A DNA stretch of 64,000 nt, taken from positions 1-64,000 of IMG/VR virus record IMGVR_UViG_3300011008_000049, one strand, 5' to 3'. Made by a program: the position numbers and the translations under genes. Shown one piece after another: positions 34,657-44,753 of this stretch (its first letter is position 1; each line of letters opens with the position of its first letter). The notes below the pieces were generated by a model. The model ran no database searches. It saw only the letters and a program-made list of their open reading frames with translations, and was not told where the DNA came from. Source of the DNA: a virus (Duplodnaviria; Caudoviricetes).

Positions 34657-36087
34657 ATGGGTGATTTTCAGAAACTTACTGATTTCGGGAATCTCTATAA
34701 TTCTTGCCAAGTTTCTTTAAGAGGTAAAGGCAAGAAAAAGAGTGCGGCGAAGTTCAATGTTATGGCACTCGAACACCTATGCGTGATGAAAAGACAATTA
34801 TTGAGTCGCACATACAAAATTTCGCCGTATTCTGAATTTATCGTAAAAGAACCAAAAACAAGAGTTATCAAGTCAGGTTCTTTCAAAGATAAGGTGTTGC
34901 AGCATTGTCTATGTGATTATGTTTTGCTGCCTACAATGAAAGACATTTTTATAACAGATAATTATGCCGGACAGATAGGAAAAGGAACATTATTCGGTCT
35001 TGACAGATTATCTGAAAATCTCCAAGAGTTTTATAATGAGCATGGGAGCAAAGGATATATTCTAAAATGTGATATAACTAAATTCTTTTATTCAATCAAT
35101 CATGATTTGATGAAAGAAAGTATCAAAGAATATTTCCAGGATGATGGTATTCAATGGATATGTAATCTTTTCATAGACAGCGTAGATGGTGATGGACTTC
35201 CTCTCGGAAATCAAAGCAGTCAAGTTTTTGCACTTATATTCCTGAATGGTCTTGACTATTTTATAAAAGAAGAATTGAAGTGCGAATACTATGGTCGCTA
35301 TATGGATGACTTCTATCTGTTGTCAAATGATAAGGATTATCTAAAATACTGTTTACAACGGATTACAGAATTTTTATCTGGTTTGCGCCTATCACTAAAT
35401 AGTAAAACAGAAATTGTTCCAATGAGCAAAGGAATAAGATTTCTCGGTTTTCATACATATCTTACGGACGATGGAAAAGTAATAAGAAAATTAAATGGAG
35501 AGAACAAAAGACAAATTAAAAAGCGTTTAAGAATTTATTCAAAATTGGTACTTGCCGGAATAATGACAAGAGAAAAATTTGATGAAAGTTATAATTCTTG
35601 GCGCAATCACGCTTCTCATGGGAATTGCTTTAAGTTGTTATGTGAGATTGATAAATATGTAGAAGAATTGTTTGGAGAGAAGAAAATGGAAACCAGAATT
35701 ATTATTGCAGGTAGCAGAGGATTTACGGATTATCAATATCTTAAATCTAAAATGGAACAGTTTATCAAAGAACATCCGAATCAAAGGTTTGTCATTATAA
35801 GCGGAACTGCCAATGGAGCGGATAAACTTGGAGAACGATTTGCGATTGAAAAAGGAATTGAACTCCGCAGATTTCCAGCAGAGTGGAATAAATATGGTAA
35901 ACGAGCTGGATATTTAAGGAACGTTCAAATGTTGGATTTTGCAGCACAAGCTGACGGAGAATCTGTTCTTATGGCGTTTTGGGACGGTAGCAGTAAAGGC
36001 ACAAGGCATATGGTTAAAATTGCAAAGAACGCCGGAATTACCGTCAATGTATTTTTGAAAGAAGAAAAGAACAATGAGAATAATTAG
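34657..36087 (+). CDS. DGR reverse transcriptase fused to C-terminal SLOG (YspA/DUF2493-like) domain
   Basis: LKCDITKFF, GLPLGNQSSQ, RYMDD, FLGF; from aa 344 IIIAGSRGF..ISGTANGAD..AGYLRN..AFWDGSSKGT. Confidence 0.9.
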   Translation: MGDFQKLTDFGNLYNSCQVSLRGKGKKKSAAKFNVMALEHLCVMKRQLLSRTYKISPYSEFIVKEPKTRVIKSGSFKDKVLQHCLCDYVLLPTMKDIFITDNYAGQIGKGTLFGLDRLSENLQEFYNEHGSKGYILKCDITKFFYSINHDLMKESIKEYFQDDGIQWICNLFIDSVDGDGLPLGNQSSQVFALIFLNGLDYFIKEELKCEYYGRYMDDFYLLSNDKDYLKYCLQRITEFLSGLRLSLNSKTEIVPMSKGIRFLGFHTYLTDDGKVIRKLNGENKRQIKKRLRIYSKLVLAGIMTREKFDESYNSWRNHASHGNCFKLLCEIDKYVEELFGEKKMETRIIIAGSRGFTDYQYLKSKMEQFIKEHPNQRFVIISGTANGADKLGERFAIEKGIELRRFPAEWNKYGKRAGYLRNVQMLDFAAQADGESVLMAFWDGSSKGTRHMVKIAKNAGITVNVFLKEEKNNENN

Positions 36088-36293: not shown

Positions 36294-36322
36294 TTGACAG
36301 ATAAATAAAAGTATGGTATAAT
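36294..36322 (+). promoter_or_regulatory. sigmaA promoter for tRNA/ncRNA region
   Basis: TTGACA-N17-TATAAT. Confidence 0.8.
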
Positions 36323-36502
36323 GTAAGAGCATTAGATGAGAGCCGACAAATAAAAGGTCGGTAATCATTTGAGGCTAATAAATAAGATGGAATAACAACA
36401 CAATTATTTGAGTAGTGAGTATAAAGCCATATTGAGTATGCCACAACGTACAAACTATTATATAAGCGCCCGTACAACGCTGTAATAGTGTGGCAGGGAT
36501 TA

Positions 36503-36576
36503 GAGTGATGGTGTAATAGGTTGCATTCTGCCCATGAGGGGGCGGAGGTACGGTTCGAGTCCGGTAATATCTCGCC
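36503..36576 (+). pseudogene. degenerate tRNA-like element
   Basis: D-arm and GGTTCGAGTCC T-loop present; anticodon loop and acceptor stem irregular. Confidence 0.4.
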
Positions 36577-36754
36577 CAAAAAGAAAGTCCCTTAAAAGTA
36601 CAAGATATGAAAAAGCGACAAATCAAATGATGGAATTAGAAAGACTGTTTAAGCCAACAGAATGTAAAAACAAAATGGCTTGCCGGTAGCAGTGCTGCGC
36701 AGACTAAATCCGGTTGTCGCTCCCACAGGTGAAAGTCCTATGGCTCAATAATTT

Positions 36755-36831
36755 GCGGGCATGATGTTTAATGGTTAGCATCCCAGTTTTCCAAACTGGT
36801 TGTGAGGGTTCAAATCCCTTTGCCCGCTCCA
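36755..36831 (+). tRNA. tRNA-Gly(TCC)
   Basis: Cloverleaf, loop TTTCCAA, CCA end. Confidence 0.9.
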
Positions 36832-36835
36832 ATAT

Positions 36836-36909
36836 TGGGATATGGTGTAATGGTAACACACAAGACTTTGACTCTTGCTTTGTAGGTTCGAGTCCTGCTA
36901 TCCCAGCCA
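36836..36909 (+). tRNA. tRNA-Gln(TTG)
   Basis: Cloverleaf, loop CTTTGAC, CCA end. Confidence 0.92.
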
Positions 36910-36912
36910 TTT

Positions 36913-37003
36913 GGAGAGGTAATCCTAATTGGTAAGGAAGCAGTTTGCTAAACTGTTAGTAACCAGCAATGGCGTGTGAGTTCGAGTCTCGCCCTCTCCG
37001 CCA
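36913..37003 (+). tRNA. tRNA-Ser(GCT)
   Basis: Long variable arm, loop TTGCTAA, CCA end. Confidence 0.9.
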
Positions 37004-37006
37004 TTT

Positions 37007-37083
37007 AGGAGAGTAGTTTAACGGTAGAACTCCGGTCTCCAAAACCGATGTAGATGAGGGTTCAAATCCTTCCTCTCCTGCCA
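37007..37083 (+). tRNA. tRNA-Trp(CCA)
   Basis: Loop CTCCAAA, CCA end. Confidence 0.88.
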
Positions 37084-37088
37084 AATAT

Positions 37089-37164
37089 GAGCCAGTAATT
37101 CAGTTGGTAGAATATCGCACTTTTAATGCGAAGGTCATGGGTTCGAGTCCCATCTGGCTCACCA
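37089..37164 (+). tRNA. tRNA-Lys(TTT)
   Basis: Loop CTTTTAA, CCA end. Confidence 0.92.
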
Positions 37165-37165
37165 T

Positions 37166-37243
37166 AGTGGCTATTGATAATCTTCCTTCTTTAATAGAAG
37201 AAATTATTTAAGAAAGTAGATTTTAGATTATCAGATTTCCACT
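37166..37243 (+). ncRNA. Y-RNA-like element 1
   Basis: AGTGGCTA-TGATAATCT-TCCTTCT...AGATTATCA-GATTTCCACT. Confidence 0.7.
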
Positions 37244-37258
37244 CCGTTCCTTTTTGCA

Positions 37259-37332
37259 CGGCTATGTAGAAACTTCCTTCTTTATATAAAACCAAAATCA
37301 AATATTTATAGAAATAGTTTCTGCAATTACCG
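37259..37332 (+). ncRNA. Y-RNA-like element 2
   Basis: CGGCTA-TGTAGAAACT-TCCTTCT...AGTTTCTGCA-ATTACCG. Confidence 0.7.
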
Positions 37333-37361
37333 ATAAAATTAAATTACAAGGAGAAAAGAAA

Positions 37362-39599
37362 ATGAACGCAACTGAAAAAATCCTACTTCGCCGTAAGCAC
37401 TTTCTGATTGTCAATCCGGGTGATTCAGAGTATCAGCAGGATAAGAGTGAAAAAACTCTTGTAATTACGGCATTGAAAAATGTGCAATCTCTTGGATTCA
37501 CTTTTTCACAGGCACTTCTCGAATCACTGTTCCATTTTACGAAAACCGAGTTCAAGGCTTTTTATAAGGCGCTTATTCCTGAACTGAAGGAATTGGTTGG
37601 TGCTGATGTTACATACGAGCCGATGTACCCGAATTTTCCGGAGCAGGTCGCAAATGCAGATGATGTTGAACTTTTCATCAATGCAATCATTCACTATTGG
37701 TCTTTCGGAACTTTGATGCCGGAATATGAGAAAGATGAGCGTTTACCTCTGATTGACGATAATAAAATGACCGTTTTATCTATCGGAACGCATGAGGATT
37801 TAATGAAAATCTTCTCTAATTTGGTTGAAAGCAAAACTTCCCTTTCTATCCAGGACAAAGAGGATATTACCACTGTTGTAAAGTCTTGCACTGATTATTC
37901 TGACTATCTGCCGGACGTTATTCCTCTGAAAGAGAATGTGGCTTTTATCGGAAAACTTATTATTGAAGAAGCTCCTATCAAATCCGCAAAGGCAATTCAG
38001 AAGTATTTCAAGACTGCAACTGATGTTCTTCGTCTTGTTACCGCTCTGTCTGATGGAGATATTAGTCTTGCAACAAAGACAAAGTTTAGGAATTTGAAGC
38101 GCAGAGAACGCAGAATGATTCTTGATTTACTTGCTGGCTGCGGAAATATCACAGAAGATTTGTTCCGTTATCAGTATGAATGGATTAGAGTTGCAGAAAT
38201 TCTTCATCCCTTTGAATACAAGATTGCGAAGTATAAGAATGTAAATGCTTCTTTCAACACGCTTCGTAATGAGCATAAGCCTCTTATGTTTGGTGGTAAA
38301 GTTCAGAATGCTATTCTTGCGAAAGATATGCGTACTGCTGCTAACTTGTTAAAGACCAGACCTGGCGAATTTGCGAGACAACTTGATAAGGTTATCCGCG
38401 ACTCTGACAATGTGAACTATGTTCTGAACTGTTTCAAAGAAATTGCGGTAGAGATTTCGACTCCGGTACTCCTTCAGGTAAGACAGCATTTCATTGGTCG
38501 TATGGCTGATGAGAAAGCACCTATCAGAGTATTCTTCCCCAAGGGCAATCTTGCAAGAGCAACATCTATCAAGAATGAACTTCCGGAAATTCCCATGAAT
38601 GTTTGTAAGAACGTTGCAAGGATTTGCAGAGATGCACTTATTGAGCAGTACAGAAATAAAGATTTCATCGGAAATGTTTATATTGATGATGAGTTAAAGA
38701 ATTATCTCGTACCGTTCAGCCAGAGAAGCGCAAGCAAAGCCGTTAAGACTATTGTTCGTGGTAGCCAGCTCCCTATTTCCAACGATGCAAAAGCAATCAG
38801 AGGATTTATTTGGTGGACTAACACCGACAAGGGAAAGGGTTATTATTATGATGACGGTAGAGTTGACATTGACCTTTCAGCAGCAATTTATGATGAGAAT
38901 TGGAGATATGTTGAACACGTTTCATATACAAATATCCGCTCTCATAAGTACAGAGCATATCACTCTGGTGATATTACCAACGGTGGAAGTGTAAACGGAA
39001 AAGGCGTTGCCGAATTCCTTGATGTTGACATTGATGCTGTTGCCAGAAACGCAGGTAGATATATCGTCTATCAGGTTTACAATTATACCAGTCAGAAATT
39101 CTCTGAACTTCCTAATTGCCGTTTCGGTTGGATGGAAAGAGCGGATGTTGACAGTGGAGAAATCTTTGAACCTACCACGGTAGAAATGAAGATGGATTTG
39201 ACCGCCGAAGGAACTACCGCTATCCCTGTAATCTTTGATTGTGTAGAGCGTAAATTCATCTGGTGTGATATGAACCTTGGCATTGAGCGTTCTTATTATG
39301 GTGGCAATAACCTTGAAAGCAATTTTTCCGGCGTAACTGCGACCTGCTATGCAATGACTCACTTGAACAAGCCAAACATCTATGACCTTGTTATGCTGAA
39401 TGCGGTTGCAAGAGGCAATGTCGTAACCGACAGAAACAATGCCGACATCATTTTCAGTAATGATACGACAGTTCCTTATGAGATTGTAACCGAAATTGAT
39501 GAAATTACCGGTACTGAAAAGAGAGCAATTAAAGAAAAGACCGATGTTCCGATTATCACAGCGTTTGATACGGACTACTTTATGGGACAACTCCTTTAA
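37362..39599 (+). CDS. large helical protein with C-terminal TerD-like domain; candidate Ro60/TROVE-like RNA-binding protein
   Basis: TerD-like VDIDLSA..YTN..HSGDIT..AEFLDVD; helical N-region with TATDVLRL and RPGEFARQLD; flanked by Y-like RNAs. Confidence 0.6.
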   Translation: MNATEKILLRRKHFLIVNPGDSEYQQDKSEKTLVITALKNVQSLGFTFSQALLESLFHFTKTEFKAFYKALIPELKELVGADVTYEPMYPNFPEQVANADDVELFINAIIHYWSFGTLMPEYEKDERLPLIDDNKMTVLSIGTHEDLMKIFSNLVESKTSLSIQDKEDITTVVKSCTDYSDYLPDVIPLKENVAFIGKLIIEEAPIKSAKAIQKYFKTATDVLRLVTALSDGDISLATKTKFRNLKRRERRMILDLLAGCGNITEDLFRYQYEWIRVAEILHPFEYKIAKYKNVNASFNTLRNEHKPLMFGGKVQNAILAKDMRTAANLLKTRPGEFARQLDKVIRDSDNVNYVLNCFKEIAVEISTPVLLQVRQHFIGRMADEKAPIRVFFPKGNLARATSIKNELPEIPMNVCKNVARICRDALIEQYRNKDFIGNVYIDDELKNYLVPFSQRSASKAVKTIVRGSQLPISNDAKAIRGFIWWTNTDKGKGYYYDDGRVDIDLSAAIYDENWRYVEHVSYTNIRSHKYRAYHSGDITNGGSVNGKGVAEFLDVDIDAVARNAGRYIVYQVYNYTSQKFSELPNCRFGWMERADVDSGEIFEPTTVEMKMDLTAEGTTAIPVIFDCVERKFIWCDMNLGIERSYYGGNNLESNFSGVTATCYAMTHLNKPNIYDLVMLNAVARGNVVTDRNNADIIFSNDTTVPYEIVTEIDEITGTEKRAIKEKTDVPIITAFDTDYFMGQLL

Positions 39600-39609
39600 T
39601 TGATTGTTA

Positions 39610-39676
39610 TTGCGGCTATGGATTCCCTTCCTTCTAATAATAATATGGGATTATAAAGGGAATCCGATTTCCGCAA
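39610..39676 (+). ncRNA. Y-RNA-like element 3
   Basis: TTGCGGCTAT-GGATTCCC-TTCCTTCT...GGGAATCC-GATTTCCGCAA. Confidence 0.7.
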
Positions 39677-39687
39677 ACCGACATTTT

Positions 39688-39758
39688 GCGGCTGAAATAC
39701 TCATCCTTCTTTTACATAAAAACTTGAAATTTTTTAATTCAGAGTATTTAATTTCCGC
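39688..39758 (+). ncRNA. Y-RNA-like element 4
   Basis: GCGGCTG-AAATACTC-ATCCTTCT...GAGTATTT-AATTTCCGC. Confidence 0.7.
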
Positions 39759-39774
39759 GATTTTCCTTTTCTTG

Positions 39775-39853
39775 CGGCTATTGTTTCTCATCCTTCTATG
39801 GCTGGTTACAGCACTTTACTGGTAATAAAGAGATTTAGAGAAACGCATTTCCG
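39775..39853 (+). ncRNA. Y-RNA-like element 5
   Basis: CGGCTATT-GTTTCTC-ATCCTTCT...GAGAAAC-GCATTTCCG. Confidence 0.7.
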
Positions 39854-39881
39854 ACATTATTTTAGAAATGAGATAAGTAGA

Positions 39882-41135
39882 TTGTCAAAAGTATTTGAAA
39901 TTATTGAAAAAGAAAAGGCAAGGCAGGACAAAACATTTGAATTGATTGCAAGTGAAAACTTTGTAAGTGAAAATGTATTAAAAGCGGTTGGCTCTTGCCT
40001 TACAAACAAGTATTCTGAAGGTTATCCAAAGAACAGAATTTCCGGCAATAAAGGAAGATATTATGGTGGTTGTCACTTTGTTGATGAACTTGAAGAATAT
40101 TGTTGTGAAAAATGGAAAGAAGTATTTAACACAGATTATCATGTAAATGTTCAACCTCATAGCGGTTCATCAGCGAATCTTGCAGCATATATGTCTATAT
40201 TGGAGCAAGGAGATACAATTCTCGCCATGAACCTCAACAATGGCGGACATCTTACTCATGGCTCTCCTGTTAATTTTTCCGGAAAACTTTTTAACATGGT
40301 TTTTTATGATGTTGATTGCAATGGCTATATAGATTATTCCGATATGGAAGATAAAATATATAGATACCGTCCGAAACTTATTCTTGCAGGAGCAAGCGCA
40401 TATTCAAGAATTATTGATTTTGAAAGAATCAGAAAAATAATTGATGATGTTCTAATTTGCATTGCTCATGAGACGGTGGAACGACAAATATTCGATTATG
40501 ATGGAAATTTGATTTCGGAGTTGCCAGAACAATATAATCCGCTGTTTATGGTCGATATGGCGCATATTGCCGGGTTGGTTGCAGCAAATATTCATCCTTC
40601 TCCTTTCGGTGTTGCAGATATTATTACTACAACTACTCATAAAACATTGAGAGGGACACGAGGCGGCTTAATTTTCTGTAAGCCAGAATTGGCAAATAAG
40701 ATAGATAGTGCAGTATTCCCTTGTTGCCAGGGTGGGGCGTTACAACACGTTATCGCAGGAAAAGCAGTTACAGCGGAAGAAGATTGCACAGAGGAATTCA
40801 AACAGTATATCGTTAATGTTGTAAATAATTGTAAAGCAATGTGCAATGAGTTTATTACATTAGGATATGATGTTGTAACTGGTGGAACAGATAATCATTT
40901 ATTTCTGATTGATTTTTCAAGAACGCATCCACATCTCACTGGAAAAATGGTTCAGGATGAACTTGATAAACACGATATTTCATTAAATAAGAATTGTGTT
41001 CCGGGAGAAAAGAGAAAACCATCAGAAACAAGTGGTGTTCGTATCGGTACGGCTGCAATGACCACAAAAGGATGCACCGAAAAAGATTTTGTAGAAGTTG
41101 CAAGGCGAATTGATAGTATTATAAAAACAATGTAA
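39882..41135 (+). CDS. glyA: serine hydroxymethyltransferase
   Basis: LIASENF, NKYSEGYP, NVQPHSG, GGHLTHG, DMAHIAGL, TTTHKTLRG; start moved to TTG 39882. Confidence 0.95.
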   Translation: MSKVFEIIEKEKARQDKTFELIASENFVSENVLKAVGSCLTNKYSEGYPKNRISGNKGRYYGGCHFVDELEEYCCEKWKEVFNTDYHVNVQPHSGSSANLAAYMSILEQGDTILAMNLNNGGHLTHGSPVNFSGKLFNMVFYDVDCNGYIDYSDMEDKIYRYRPKLILAGASAYSRIIDFERIRKIIDDVLICIAHETVERQIFDYDGNLISELPEQYNPLFMVDMAHIAGLVAANIHPSPFGVADIITTTTHKTLRGTRGGLIFCKPELANKIDSAVFPCCQGGALQHVIAGKAVTAEEDCTEEFKQYIVNVVNNCKAMCNEFITLGYDVVTGGTDNHLFLIDFSRTHPHLTGKMVQDELDKHDISLNKNCVPGEKRKPSETSGVRIGTAAMTTKGCTEKDFVEVARRIDSIIKTM

Positions 41136-41142
41136 TAATCAT

Positions 41143-41271
41143 GCGGCTGGATGATACCATCCTTCTAATGTAATGGGAACTATGTGTCGTTGGTTCGAGT
41201 CCAACCGTCCCGGCAATCGGGACGTGGCGCAGTTGGTAGCGCAATAGTATTTAGGGTATCGAAATTACCGC
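41143..41271 (+). ncRNA. Y-RNA-like element 6 with permuted tRNA module (YrlA-type)
   Basis: Same terminal stem motif enclosing T-arm GTTGG-TTCGAGT-CCAAC, loop-closed acceptor stem, then D-arm GCGC-AGTTGGTA-GCGC. Confidence 0.8.
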
Positions 41272-41305
41272 TTAAAAATAAATATAAATATTTTTGAAGA
41301 ACCTC

Positions 41306-41334
41306 TTGACATATTTATAAAAGTGTGATATAAT
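41306..41334 (+). promoter_or_regulatory. sigmaA promoter
   Basis: TTGACA-N17-TATAAT; nearly identical to promoter at 63852. Confidence 0.8.
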
Positions 41335-41361
41335 GACCATGTAATCGAAAAGGATATATGC

Positions 41362-41437
41362 GCGGCTGGAAATGCTCATCCTTCTATCAAGGAACAAACT
41401 TTTAATTTGTCAATCTAATAGAGCATAAAATTTCCGC
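41362..41437 (+). ncRNA. Y-RNA-like element 7
   Basis: GCGGCTGGAA-ATGCTC-ATCCTTCT...GAGCAT-AAAATTTCCGC. Confidence 0.7.
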
Positions 41438-41448
41438 ATTACATATCT

Positions 41449-41587
41449 GTCGGCTGGTTGGATTCATCCTTCTATTTACATAATGCCAAACCGCCAATCG
41501 TGGGTTCAAATCCCACCTTCTTACGGAGTAAGATGTAGCCAAGTGGATAAGGCAGCGGTCTATTAAAGAGAATCCAAAATTACCGAC
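41449..41587 (+). ncRNA. Y-RNA-like element 8 with permuted tRNA module (YrlA-type)
   Basis: GTCGGCTGG-TTGGATTC-ATCCTTCT; ACCGC..GTGGG-TTCAAAT-CCCAC, closed acceptor stem, TAGCCAAGTGGATAAGGCA-GCGGT; GAATCCAA-AATTACCGAC. Confidence 0.8.
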
Positions 41588-41642
41588 TTTATATTATTCG
41601 ATTATAAATAAGACGGAGAAAAACCGTGACGGAGGTTTAACG

Positions 41643-42416
41643 ATGGCAAACAAGATTACGAGACAGGCTTCAAACGAAAAAGAAAAGATGTTCCTCGAAA
41701 GGTTCAATTCTCTTTGCTACACCAGAAGCAGTTGGCAAGTTTGGTCTGATTTCATAACTGCCGCCGCTATTGCTATTGCAAATTCAACGGAACAGAACCC
41801 GAAGATACATGAAGAAAGAGAAAAAGAATTCTCAAAATGTATTGAACGGCTCGGCGGTCAGGATATTCCGGCTGAAATGCTCGGAATAATTACGATGGCT
41901 CTCGAAGAAAATTCAGAACAAGATTTCCTTGGGAACATCTTTATGAAGCTCGAACTTGGAAGCCATTGGCATGGTCAGTTCTTTACACCGTATAACATTT
42001 GCGAGTTAATGGCTGAAATCAATTCTGATAATTTGAAACAGCAGATTGAAGATAAAGGATGGATTTCAGTAAATGATTGTGCTTGCGGTGCTGGTGCAAC
42101 ACTTATCGCGGCAGCGAATGTATTCAGAAAACACGATGTTAATTTTCAAGACCATGCTTTATTTGTAGCACAGGATGTTGATAGAATTGCTGGAATGATG
42201 TGTTTCATCCAATTATCATTAATCGGATGTTCTGGCTATGTTGTAATAGCAAATTCTTTAACAAGCCCTCTCACCGGCAACAGTGCTTTGTTTCCGGAAG
42301 AAAAAGAAGAACAAGAATTCTGGTACACGCCGATGTGGTTTTCAGATGTTTGGAATATGAGACGTGCTTGGAATCTAATGGATTTAATGTTTAGGAAAAT
42401 GTCAAATGAATTATAA
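41643..42416 (+). CDS. N6-adenine methyltransferase-like protein (no obvious NPPY)
   Basis: GQFFTPY and DCACGAG SAM-binding motif. Confidence 0.7.
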   Translation: MANKITRQASNEKEKMFLERFNSLCYTRSSWQVWSDFITAAAIAIANSTEQNPKIHEEREKEFSKCIERLGGQDIPAEMLGIITMALEENSEQDFLGNIFMKLELGSHWHGQFFTPYNICELMAEINSDNLKQQIEDKGWISVNDCACGAGATLIAAANVFRKHDVNFQDHALFVAQDVDRIAGMMCFIQLSLIGCSGYVVIANSLTSPLTGNSALFPEEKEEQEFWYTPMWFSDVWNMRRAWNLMDLMFRKMSNEL

Positions 42417-42591
42417 GTTTATTTGTCCGAAATGCGGTAAGCAGGTCACTGTATCAATGCCAATTACAGAATATAAACCAGATGGTCATTACTGTGAATG
42501 TGGCGAAGAATTAAAACGAGATACGAATGATTTCTGCACATATAGTCCGAGAAATATAGAAGGATTTTTCGGAACTTCTAAAAAATCATAA
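42406..42591 (+). CDS. FmdB-like zinc-ribbon protein
   Basis: YKFICPKCG...CECG. Confidence 0.65.
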   Translation: MNYKFICPKCGKQVTVSMPITEYKPDGHYCECGEELKRDTNDFCTYSPRNIEGFFGTSKKS

Positions 42592-42746
42592 ATAACGACT
42601 TTCACAAAGCCTAACCGATACACTTTATATCATGTAGTTCTCCTTTCTGTTGTTCGTTTTGTTGTTGCTCATTTACTTATTTTAATCGGTTAAAACTGCA
42701 AATGCAGAGTGCAAAGTTTATTCGATAAAGGTCTTTGCACATATAT

Positions 42747-42831
42747 GCTGGCGTGGTGGAATTGGCAGACACGCAAGATTAAGGTTCTTGTTCCGTAAGG
42801 AGTGCAGGTTCAAGTCCTGTTGCCAGCACCA
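42747..42831 (+). tRNA. tRNA-Leu(AAG)
   Basis: Leu-type D-loop and variable arm; loop TTAAGGT. Confidence 0.88.
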
Positions 42832-42835
42832 TTAT

Positions 42836-42922
42836 GCGGGAGTGACGGAATTGGCAGACGTAGCGGACTTAAAATCCGCTGGTAGCAATACCGTGTGGGT
42901 TCAAGTCCCATCTCCCGCACCA
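42836..42922 (+). tRNA. tRNA-Leu(TAA)
   Basis: Loop CTTAAAA, CCA end. Confidence 0.93.
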
Positions 42923-42926
42923 ATAT

Positions 42927-43001
42927 ACTGCATTAGCTCAACGGTTAGAGCAATCGCCTTATAAGCGATAGACATTAGTTCGACTCTACTATGCAGTACC
43001 A
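42927..43001 (+). tRNA. tRNA-Ile(TAT)
   Basis: Loop CTTATAA, CCA end. Confidence 0.85.
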
Positions 43002-43083
43002 ACGGCGACTTTCTTAAAAGTTAGTTCTTTAAGCCGGAAAAATCAAAGTAAACTACGCTTGACATTCGGAGAGACGATAATAC

Positions 43084-43173
43084 GGTGAGGTGGCAGAGTC
43101 CGGCTTATTGCACCAGTCTTGAAAACTGGCGGCGGGAAACCGTCCCTGGGTTCAAATCCCAGCCTCACCGCCA
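43084..43173 (+). tRNA. tRNA-Ser(TGA)
   Basis: Loop CTTGAAA, long variable arm. Confidence 0.92.
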
Positions 43174-43319
43174 TAAGATTGCCGATGATACGAATATAGG
43201 CGGTGCAAATTGCTCATAAGTGTGAATCTCGCAAAGTCATCGTTAGCGACCTCCGTGGATGCTGCTCCTATGGCTGATGGCATCTATCGGCAATCGAAAT
43301 TATATTGCTGGAGGAAACA

Positions 43320-43589
43320 ATGTTTAGAAATGTTGTGGTTGGGAAACCTCTTGTGGATGTAAGAATGTTGTTATCGGAAGATGAGGAAGATTGGGAAAGA
43401 AATGAGAAAAAAGATACTCTTTTTACTGAAACAAGATTCCTTCCGGCAATATTAAAGGAAGCAGGTGTTGTTTCGTCAACCGGAGAAATAAGAAGAAACA
43501 AACCTGACCTTGTAATAAATTTGGATAAACCAGATTGTCTATGGGTTAAATGGGGCAAGAAATTTATTTACATAGTTGTCGGTGAATAA
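43320..43589 (+). CDS. S4-like RNA-binding domain protein
   Basis: ILKEAGVVSSTGEIRRN...VKWGKK resembles the TyrRS C-terminal S4 domain. Confidence 0.55.
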   Translation: MFRNVVVGKPLVDVRMLLSEDEEDWERNEKKDTLFTETRFLPAILKEAGVVSSTGEIRRNKPDLVINLDKPDCLWVKWGKKFIYIVVGE

Positions 43590-43592
43590 TAT

Positions 43593-43669
43593 GCGCCATT
43601 AGTTCAGATGGATAGAACAATGGACTTCTAATCCATAGGTCGAAGGTTCAAGTCCTTCATGGCGTGCCA
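43593..43669 (+). tRNA. tRNA-Arg(TCT)
   Basis: Loop CTTCTAA, CCA end. Confidence 0.92.
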
Positions 43670-43673
43670 ATAT

Positions 43674-43758
43674 GCTGGTATGACGGAATCGGCAGACGTG
43701 ACAGACTCAAAATCTGTTGCCGAGAGGCGTGTGAGTTCAAGTCTCACTACCAGTACCA
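43674..43758 (+). tRNA. tRNA-Leu(CAA)
   Basis: Loop CTCAAAA, CCA end. Confidence 0.92.
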
Positions 43759-43759
43759 T

Positions 43760-43835
43760 TGCGGGATAGAGAAGCGGTCATCTCACGACCCTCATAAGGT
43801 CGGAATCGTGGGTTCGAGTCCCACTCCCGCAACCA
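43760..43835 (+). tRNA. tRNA-Met(CAT), initiator-like body
   Basis: Loop CTCATAA; fMet-like acceptor/D arm but no GGG/CCC anticodon stem. Confidence 0.85.
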
Positions 43836-43838
43836 AAT

Positions 43839-43915
43839 CTGGATGTAGTTCAGTTTGGTAGAACGCTGCATTTGGGATGCAGAGGTCGCAGGTTCGAGTC
43901 CTGTCATCCAGACCA
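43839..43915 (+). tRNA. tRNA-Pro(TGG)
   Basis: Loop TTTGGGA, CCA end. Confidence 0.93.
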
Positions 43916-43940
43916 TTATTAAACGAAAGGAATACTACAA

Positions 43941-44753
43941 ATGAAGTACGATGCACTTGGTCAGAGAATGAAAAAGTATGAATTCATTACAAGAACACAT
44001 CTCATTCCGAGAATGCCGGTGATTATTAGAATTGATGGTAAGGCGTTTCATACTTTTACGAGAGGGTTTAAGAAACCATTTGATGAAATTCTTGTAAAGA
44101 CCATGCAGGAAACAATGAAATATTTGTGTGAAAACATTCAAGGTTGTGTTCTTGGATATACGCAGTCTGATGAAATCACGTTGGTTCTTGTTGATTACAA
44201 GAAATTAGACTCATGCTCATGGTTCGATTACAACATTCAAAAGTGTGCGAGTGTTGCGGCAAGTATGGCTACAATGGCATTTAACAGGGAATTCGCACAT
44301 CAGGTCAGACGATATAAGGAAGAACGGATTAAAGATAAAACACATATATGGAATAGTTATAAAGACAATTATTATGCAACCATATATAACGCCATTAGTA
44401 AGGGAGCTATGTTCGATGCTCGTTGTTTCAATATTCCAAAGGAAGAAGTTTGTAATAACATTCTTTGGAGACAAAATGATGCAACAAGAAATTCAATAGA
44501 AATGGTTGGTCATGCGAATTTTTCACAATCGCAACTTCACAAAAAGAGTTGTAATGATATTCAGGATATGTTGATGTTGGAACGTGGAATCAATTGGAAC
44601 AATTTCCCGACACATCTGAAACGTGGTAGTTGTTGTATTCGTGAGGAATCAGATGAATCTGGCAGAACAAGATGGGTTGTTGATACTGAAATTCCGATTT
44701 TCAAAGGAGACGGAAGAAAGTACATTGACGATTTGATTTTCATAGGAGAATAA
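43941..44753 (+). CDS. Thg1-like tRNA(His) guanylyltransferase / 3'-5' polymerase
   Basis: RIDGKAFH, YTQSDEI, FDAR, WRQ.DA.RNS. Confidence 0.9.
   Translation: MKYDALGQRMKKYEFITRTHLIPRMPVIIRIDGKAFHTFTRGFKKPFDEILVKTMQETMKYLCENIQGCVLGYTQSDEITLVLVDYKKLDSCSWFDYNIQKCASVAASMATMAFNREFAHQVRRYKEERIKDKTHIWNSYKDNYYATIYNAISKGAMFDARCFNIPKEEVCNNILWRQNDATRNSIEMVGHANFSQSQLHKKSCNDIQDMLMLERGINWNNFPTHLKRGSCCIREESDESGRTRWVVDTEIPIFKGDGRKYIDDLIFIGE

Follow-up and report, generated by a model that had tools for sequence, protein, structure and literature searches.

Introduction

The Ro60/Y RNA particle is among the few protein-RNA particles common to animals and bacteria, and its role is poorly understood. The Y RNA tethers PNPase to the Ro60 protein Rsr. 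In phages, the known Ro60/YrlA systems use bona fide TROVE proteins (PMC4201824, PMC7824862), and YrlA-type RNA modules are known substrates of tRNA enzymes (PMC4201824). Here, we describe eight structured RNA elements around the gene for a 745-aa protein, P0001, in the virus record IMGVR_UViG_3300011008_000049. The analyzed stretch (hereafter the window) is the first 64 kb of this 152,621-bp record, which is rated 99% complete, and the source is a gut phage with a genome of ~152 kb. The system appears to be an undescribed relative of the Ro60/Y RNA particle.

As in the Ro60/Y RNA systems, the protein gene is accompanied by one to several genes for RNAs of 55‒140 nt, and these RNAs resemble Y RNAs in having a long, presumably protein-binding stem with conserved mismatches, a single-stranded stretch rich in pyrimidines, and an effector module that varies. 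Unlike the Ro60/Y RNA systems, which have 1‒4 RNAs, the phage genomes here carry 8‒10, and the cargo includes types not described for Y RNAs, such as isolated anticodon stem-loops. The protein also differs from Ro60, since it has no TROVE sequence signal and contains a TerD β-sandwich after the helical domain, where Ro60 has a vWA domain with a MIDAS site. The system looks like a second version of Ro60/Y RNA, and its RNA has no entry in Rfam. In the literature searched, neither the RNA nor any RNA partner of this protein family was described, although a prior description is possible.

An RNA scaffold in eight copies around the P0001 gene

The elements and the gene in the window are listed below, with bit scores for the covariance model of this RNA family (R1) and for the Rfam YrlA model where it matched.

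37167‒37242, + strand: element 1, scaffold with A/U-rich cargo without clear tRNA likeness (R1 63.9 bits)
37258‒37333, + strand: element 2, scaffold with A/U-rich cargo (R1 47.4 bits)
37362‒39599, + strand: gene for P0001, 745 aa, with a strong AAGGAG ribosome-binding site
39612‒39674, + strand: element 3, scaffold with a short hairpin with an AUGGG loop (R1 59.8 bits)
39688‒39758, + strand: element 4, anticodon stem-loop mimic AAAAA-CU[UGA]AA-UUUUU, Ser-UGA (R1 68.7 bits)
39774‒39854, + strand: element 5, small hairpin and anticodon stem-loop mimic CUUUA-CU[GGU]AA-UAAAG, Thr-GGU (R1 41.1 bits)
41143‒41271, + strand: element 6, whole permuted tRNA-Pro(UGG), YrlA-like (R1 38 bits, YrlA 33.9 bits)
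41362‒41437, + strand: element 7, anticodon stem-loop mimic ACAAA-CU[UUU]AA-UUUGU, Lys-UUU (R1 70.5 bits)
41450‒41586, + strand: element 8, whole permuted tRNA-Gly(GCC) with closed acceptor (R1 43.6 bits, YrlA 20.5 bits)

An earlier note on the window had proposed an array of eight Y-RNA-like RNAs, and all eight are present where it had placed them, on the + strand. The genome total is at least ten, however, with two further copies on the − strand at 150457‒150652, directly upstream of a tRNA-Glu gene. All copies follow one plan, in which a 4-bp terminal stem (NNGG/CCN'N') leads to an internal loop with CU and two bases on its 5' side and (N)AUU(U/A) on its 3' side, and then to a helix of ~8 bp that is different in each copy and ends in an invariant C-G pair. 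A single-stranded (A/U)UCCUUCU follows, and then a variable cargo of 20‒100 nt. The terminal stem is invariant in GG/CC, as are the CU that follows, the C-G pair at the end of the variable helix, UCCUUCU, and AUU.CC. The internal loop, the variable but always pairing stem, the TCCTTCT motif, and the variable cargo are as the earlier note had described them, whereas the terminal stem, given there as (G/T)CGG/CCG, is fixed only in GG/CC, and its two outer pairs covary; the outermost pair is mismatched in elements 2 and 5. Adjacent copies are separated by spacers of 12‒15 nt. The pattern CGGCTR-N6-14-TCCTTCT, which covers only the 5' half, has seven matches compared with 0.02 expected by chance, and the eighth copy begins with GTGGCT. 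Two reading frames overlap the elements. A 73-aa ORF (39604‒39825, + strand) overlies elements 3‒5 and is probably no gene, and the longest call of a serine hydroxymethyltransferase ORF (39798‒41135, + strand) begins within element 5; since its Pfam match starts from residue 31, the true start is probably further downstream.

The shared RNA fold is real, and the covariation is strong. In a seed alignment of 31 short-cargo copies from the window and related phage contigs, with pairs counted for two helices, 96.2% of the cells were paired, compared with 61.4% in shuffles and 37‒48% with the partner column slid, bearing out the built-in covariation that had been claimed for the eight copies. Double-sided changes were found in 132 cells (39 expected) and at nine of the 12 pairs; the other three, two G-C pairs of the terminal stem and the closing C-G pair, never vary. 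The covariance model R1 matched all eight window copies and nothing else in the 64 kb on either strand, and outside the window it matched the two copies at 150457‒150652. The pairing was 95.2% in the alignment of 119 viral hits and 97.0% in that of 62 bacterial hits, both of which were fitted to R1 and are hence biased towards the model. Across the three alignments, 95‒97% of the cells were paired, against 59‒67% in shuffles and 37‒62% after sliding. No family of Rfam 15 covers the scaffold (E ≤ 10 over 36700‒44000; E ≤ 1 on four bacterial loci and the locus of phage Weasels2), and the searches of the scaffold loci gave partial YrlA matches to the tRNA-like cores only.

Co-occurrence of the RNA and the protein gene

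The linkage between the gene and the RNA is strict. In viral loci encoding P0001 homologs of 35‒77% identity, copies of the 5' motif flank the gene on its own strand in 24 of 24 cases, and R1 gave 119 hits in 20 of 20 sources, flanking the gene and never on the opposite strand. In bacterial loci with homologs of 42‒77% identity, R1 hits were found in 80 of 80, always on the gene's strand, although some of these loci, notably the 64‒77% Clostridia/Ruminococcus contigs from metagenome-assembled genomes (MAGs; L040‒L042), may be binned phage or prophage DNA. The bacterial loci span Bacillota, Chloroflexota, Cyanobacteria, Acidobacteriota, and Bacteroidota, including Paenibacillus, Brevibacillus, Priestia, and Niallia, and their RNA copies are mostly located <200 nt upstream of the gene or just downstream. 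In five whole bacterial genomes (5.9‒8.7 Mb), R1 hits occurred at the gene only, with 150 candidates per genome scored. The earlier note had staked its proposal on the RNA and the protein occurring together elsewhere, and they do so in both groups; its idea of a phage system holds for related phages but is too narrow, since bacteria carry a simpler form.

For a search in the reverse direction, 80 viral loci were fetched by a 15-base pattern of the RNA 5' part alone. The protein was encoded in 34 of the 46 loci with a full element and in one of the 34 with chance pattern matches, in the stretches examined. Distant homologs (24‒32% identity) in cultured phages also adjoin diverged versions of the RNA: four tandem elements, one with a YrlA-like tRNA module, downstream of the gene in Rhodococcus phage Weasels2, three upstream in Xanthomonas phage XacN1, and two upstream in Lactobacillus phage LpeD. 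These RNAs keep the architecture, and their loop sequences have diverged together with the protein (UUACUUCU, GCUCACC), as co-evolution of the two would predict.

The bacterial RNAs are 56‒68 nt long with the consensus n-A-GGCUAU, helix, C-U-UCCUUCU-A ... UUAG, helix, (C)UUUCC. In Priestia megaterium, a promoter-like site is followed by a 61-nt RNA, a terminator-like hairpin with a U run, and then the gene, the site and the hairpin having been read by eye. Placed between the promoter-like site and the hairpin with its U run, ahead of the gene, this RNA seems to have a small RNA gene of its own. Among the bacterial loci, the largest array, with six tandem copies upstream of the gene, was seen on a MAG contig (L101 339‒982, + strand). 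Mimicry of the 16S rRNA 3' tail (anti-Shine-Dalgarno) by UCCUUCU is an idea only, and the motif is equally conserved in phyla with little use of the Shine-Dalgarno sequence. Look-ups of the encoding contigs for conserved protein partners gave only short contigs without informative neighbors.

tRNA-derived cargo

The phage cargo derives from tRNA. Elements 6 and 8 present, in order, the T arm, a 7-bp acceptor stem closed by a short linker, the D arm, and the 5' strand of the anticodon stem. When the cargo ends were joined in silico at nucleotides 33/34, ARAGORN returned complete cloverleafs, tRNA-Pro(UGG) for element 6 and tRNA-Gly(GCC) for element 8. Since the re-permuted cargos are complete tRNAs, the scaffold sits exactly in the opened anticodon loop. 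Elements 4, 5, and 7 have canonical anticodon arms of 5 bp and 7 nt with the loops CU-UGA-AA, CU-GGU-AA, and CU-UUU-AA. Related phages show four classes of cargo. Some copies hold a whole permuted tRNA and others an anticodon arm, with Lys-UUU in at least nine loci and Pro-UGG and Cys-GCA also present. In a third class, a T-loop hairpin comes before one whose GUGGAU loop resembles a D loop, and the last class consists of unclassified A/U-rich loops. Lys-UUU is the most recurrent anticodon loop among the related loci. In the L003 counterpart of element 7, the stem ACAAA/UUUG is kept and GCU replaces UUU, so the changing part seems to be the anticodon itself. The bacterial RNAs have no tRNA-like cargo and end in a plain loop of 15‒25 nt, which is pyrimidine-rich as in YrlB/Yrn2.

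Among the eight elements, only 6 and 8 share with YrlA the T arm, closed acceptor, and D arm on a long stem; the other six do not. YrlA, with the same layout, is no tRNA precursor (PMC4201824). The Rfam YrlA model (RF02553) matches 41181‒41246 and 41492‒41557 at 33.9 and 20.5 bits, respectively, over model positions 23‒85 only and below its gathering threshold of 69 bits. The genuine YrlA beside the Ro60 gene of mycobacteriophage Bxz1 scores only 32.5 bits at the same model positions, so the Rfam threshold misses known phage YrlA RNAs. The YrlA match sought by the earlier note is therefore present below the threshold, at the level of Bxz1 for element 6 and lower for element 8. Since the model also matches ordinary tRNA-tRNA junctions (43806‒43864), a partial YrlA match alone is weak evidence. 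Upstream of the Bxz1 Ro60 gene are two Y-RNA-like hairpins (L037 1120‒1390; record 129932‒130202) sharing GUCGGUUA and CACCAUGUCU. The Ro60-binding stems of these Bxz1 RNAs, the one reference compared, differ from the present scaffold in having no GGCUAU, UCCUUCU, or AUUUCC.

Elements 6 and 8 also resemble the permuted tRNA genes of the Cyanidioschyzon merolae type, in that the tRNA halves stand in reversed order, 3' before 5', with a short linker between the acceptor ends. Unlike in those genes, the break is at nucleotides 33/34 within a conserved scaffold and not at a bulge-helix-bulge splice motif, and most members of the RNA family have no complete tRNA.

Structural model of P0001

The regions of P0001 are as follows.

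Residues 1‒140: N-terminal region
Residues ~146‒443: helical Ro60-like repeats
Residues ~474‒660: TerD β-sandwich
Remaining C-terminal residues: α/β part

Homologs of P0001 number 2,843 cluster representatives at E ≤ 0.001, and the AlphaFold2 model of the full-length protein, based on 64 sequences, has a pLDDT of 91.3 and a pTM of 0.89. The model contains the helical repeat domain and the TerD fold from which the earlier note had named the protein. Residues 474‒660 superpose on the TerD structures 3ibz (Z 16.7, 160 aligned, rmsd 2.5), 2qng (Z 16.4), and 2kxt (Z 13.7), and a profile search of the PDB sequences with P0001 found 3ibz at E 0.0039, while phmmer against the PDB sequences found nothing. 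In common with TerD/TerE/TerZ (3ibz, 2kxt), this region has the TerD fold and keeps part of the acidic GD...G.G..E..D motif. However, TerD proteins consist of a single domain of ~190 aa, are encoded in ter operons, and have no known RNA partner, whereas the fold here is one domain of a 700‒750-aa protein with its own RNA genes.

For the helical part, residues 1‒475 were folded alone (pLDDT 77) and compared by VIA-align with 48,161 representative chains without a prefilter. The first rank was Deinococcus radiodurans Rsr (2nvo_A, Z 10.6, 256 aligned, rmsd 5.9; model residues 146‒443 on chain residues 36‒366), followed by the Ro60 of Thermus phage phiLo (9l5y_B, Z 9.7, 236 aligned, rmsd 4.4). The third rank had Z 7.0 with an rmsd of 18, and Xenopus Ro was found at Z 5.8. 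When the full-length model was compared, the best non-TerD matches aligned over most of the chain were Rsr, phage Ro60, and human Ro60, and the flanking α/β segments (388‒470 and 652‒745) partly align with the C-terminal region of Rsr in this superposition; Foldseek gave a weak match of the full model to Ro60 (E 5.6e-3). The chance that P0001 forms a true Ro60-like ring, by descent or convergence, seems a little better than even. The likeness to the Y RNA system claimed earlier is accordingly found in the YrlA layout of elements 6 and 8 and in the top structural matches, and not in homology to TROVE at the sequence level.

Residues 308‒693 of P0001 are strongly similar to NCBIfam NF041916, the MXAN_6230/SCO0854 RING family (E 3e-125, 419 bits with a cut-off of 600). 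The match covers profile positions 387‒762 of 842, leaving the RING-bearing end unmatched, and no published function of the family was found in the literature searched. P0001 also matches PHROG 33734, whose function is unknown. The ESM Atlas features search returned unnamed viral clusters only, PADLOC gave a stray 13-bit AbiEi match only, and there was no nuclease fold among the structural matches. A type III toxin-antitoxin (ToxIN-like) system was rejected, since the RNA copies differ in sequence and keep only the structure, and the protein has neither a nuclease fold nor a notable PADLOC match.

Transcription

The promoters and the tRNA genes upstream of the elements are listed below.

36294‒36322, + strand: sigma-70-type promoter, 12/12 consensus with TG (extended −10), heading the tRNA array, elements 1‒2, and the protein gene
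36755‒37164, + strand: tRNA array of five genes (Gly, Gln, Ser, Trp, Lys)
41306‒41334, + strand: second consensus promoter, 12/12 with TG (extended −10), ~28 nt upstream of element 7

Only 2 nt separate the CCA end of tRNA-Lys from the start of element 1. No terminator-like site was found on the + strand from 36294 to 44100, so the elements appear to share long transcripts with 13 tRNAs and several mRNAs, from which they would have to be excised. The ~430 nt from the perfect promoter to the first tRNA (36323‒36754, + strand) contain no + strand ORF of ≥60 aa, and no Rfam match was found there.

A proposed particle and its alternatives

We consider it fairly probable that P0001 binds these RNAs and that the particle as a whole works in a Ro/Y-like manner. 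Because the linkage is strict, the base of the RNA is conserved while its tip varies, and the protein has a Ro60-like fold, we infer a particle with a protein-held basal stem and an effector tip. The protein most likely binds the base, namely the GG/CC stem, the C-U opposite U-U mismatch, the variable helix with its C-G pair, and UCCUUCU, which would leave the apical cargo free to vary as an effector module. Bacteria typically have between one and a few of these RNAs, each with a plain loop. The phage would have enlarged the set to at least ten and used the cargo position for tRNA parts, either whole tRNAs and anticodon arms or, in relatives, T- and D-loop hairpins. The RNAs, cut out of long transcripts shared with the phage tRNAs, would let the particles show tRNA look-alikes to tRNA-recognizing proteins during infection. 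The likeliest use of the cargo, though one that we put forward only tentatively, is as bait that captures or soaks up host anticodon nucleases and other tRNA-directed defense enzymes; alternatively, it may tether tRNA repair or processing enzymes to the ring. Lys-UUU is the classic target of PrrC and PARIS, and the permutation point at 33/34 is the PrrC cut site. In the wider scenario, which we regard as possible though doubtful, this would be a widespread unrecognized bacterial and phage ribonucleoprotein, descended from or convergent with Ro60/Y, in which a ring-like helical/TerD protein holds interchangeable small RNAs. Large gut phages would have made it into multivalent tRNA decoys, with anticodon loops and permuted whole tRNAs that trap or neutralize tRNA-cleaving host defense enzymes and with the cargo swapped between phages in an arms race.

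Several results weigh against a Ro60-like particle with a decoy function. Pfam gave no family for P0001 at E ≤ 1, TROVE and TerD included, and TROVE (PF05731) had no match anywhere in the 152.6-kb genome, with control genomes positive. An hhalign comparison of the P0001 alignment (A1, 64 sequences) with a TROVE alignment (A5) gave a probability of 0.1, A5 being a narrow, mostly actinobacterial set of Bxz1 Ro and 30 relatives. Foldseek with the helical domain alone found nothing at E ≤ 0.001, with Thermus phage Ro60 third at E 0.11 and a TM of ~0.3, and helical repeat proteins of separate ancestry can reach Z values near 10, which are not rare for such folds. Since the bacterial RNAs lack tRNA-like cargo, the role as bait or decoy could not be ancestral. 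The anticodon loop of the permuted tRNAs is not intact, which would be strange in a decoy aimed at anticodon nucleases, and no nuclease, ligase, or PNPase was consistently linked to the gene in the loci examined.

The same particle could instead perform Ro60-like RNA quality control or repair, with the ring threading the ends of damaged or misfolded tRNA or rRNA and the tRNA-like modules recruiting RNase P, the CCA-adding enzyme, PNPase, a ligase, or modification enzymes. This is the main rival, which we rate as rather unlikely; in its favor, Ro60 proteins are the best structural match and tRNA enzymes are known to act on YrlA-type modules (PMC4201824). Near the locus are tRNA genes together with genes for a Thg1-like 5'-end repair enzyme, PTH2, and phosphoesterases, and the bacterial forms, with their YrlB/Yrn2-like loop, are read more naturally in this way. 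However, no RtcB, PNPase, or other repair gene is conserved beside the gene, the bacterial genes look free-standing, and the fast turnover of anticodons between related phages fits a role in conflict better. A more distant alternative, to which we give a small probability, is that the elements are cis-acting sites for processing, stability, or autoregulation, which, bound by the protein or an RNase, punctuate the tRNA-mRNA transcripts or control the gene without any RNA acting in trans. Such sites would explain the many bacterial copies that precede the gene by <200 nt on its strand and the phage copies between tRNAs and ORFs in terminator-free transcripts, but not the copies downstream of the gene (Niallia, Heyndrickxia, and most phage copies) or 110 kb away beside other tRNAs. 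In P. megaterium, moreover, the terminator-like hairpin separates the RNA from the gene, and a simple operator has no use for elaborate, conserved tRNA-derived cargo.

It is also very improbable that elements 6 and 8 are true permuted pre-tRNA genes, from which the scaffold would be excised, the ends joined at nucleotides 33/34, and the acceptor opened by RNase P and RNase Z. Both do give complete cloverleafs after re-permutation in silico and have plausible identity features, such as C1-G72 in the Pro copy. Nevertheless, most elements carry an anticodon arm only or no tRNA part, and the bacterial ones carry none; the phage already has a normal tRNA-Pro(UGG) gene; 33/34 is not the known intron site, and no splicing endonuclease was seen; and YrlA shares the layout without being a tRNA precursor (PMC4201824). 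Least credible of all is that the RNAs are unrelated to the protein and merely share an accessory island with it. The protein was absent from 12 of the 46 full-element loci in the stretches examined, but these 12 are mostly short or are second sites on contigs with the gene, and the linkage holds across phyla and whole genomes, with the RNA loop co-varying with protein divergence.

Carriers of the proposed protein-RNA particle include Priestia megaterium, Paenibacillus, and Brevibacillus, which can be cultured and manipulated, as well as the phages Weasels2, XacN1, and LpeD. What is unusual about the phage form is the reuse of a single scaffold to show many tRNA parts, which makes the idea of an RNA decoy or adaptor for tRNA-directed enzymes directly testable. 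The RNA family could also account for part of the unannotated space within phage tRNA clusters.

Genomic neighborhood

The stretch around the elements is an accessory region centered on tRNA. Directly 3' of the second tRNA array is a gene for a Thg1-like tRNA-His guanylyltransferase/3'-5' polymerase (43941‒44753, + strand), followed by a PTH2 peptidyl-tRNA hydrolase (45021‒45500, + strand) and two calcineurin-like phosphoesterases (metallophosphoesterases; 46851‒47618 and 47988‒48590, + strand); this run of tRNA-related genes (43941‒48590, + strand) also includes a YunG-like protein. The protein encoded after element 8 (41643‒42416, + strand) has 257 aa and contains an N6 DNA methylase domain (E 1e-9).

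Upstream of the tRNA array, an ORF at 34657‒36087 (+ strand) encodes a fusion of two domains, a reverse transcriptase (RVT_1, E 5e-17) and a YspA-type SLOG domain (E 3e-16). A retron or diversity-generating retroelement RNA tied to this reverse transcriptase was considered and rejected, since the elements are unlike template repeats and, in the related loci with listed neighbors, the RNA-protein pair has no annotated or called reverse transcriptase next to it. Elsewhere in the window, a type II hammerhead ribozyme (6448‒6513, + strand, 43.8 bits) and an S-adenosylmethionine (SAM) riboswitch (18566‒18653, + strand, 56 bits) scored above their thresholds. The tRNA clusters of related phage contigs (L010 2873‒3184, L020 2337‒2411) contain a tmRNA gene with the tag ANNEVRMAA and a tRNA with a CUA anticodon, which was called as tRNA-Pyl and is a possible amber suppressor.

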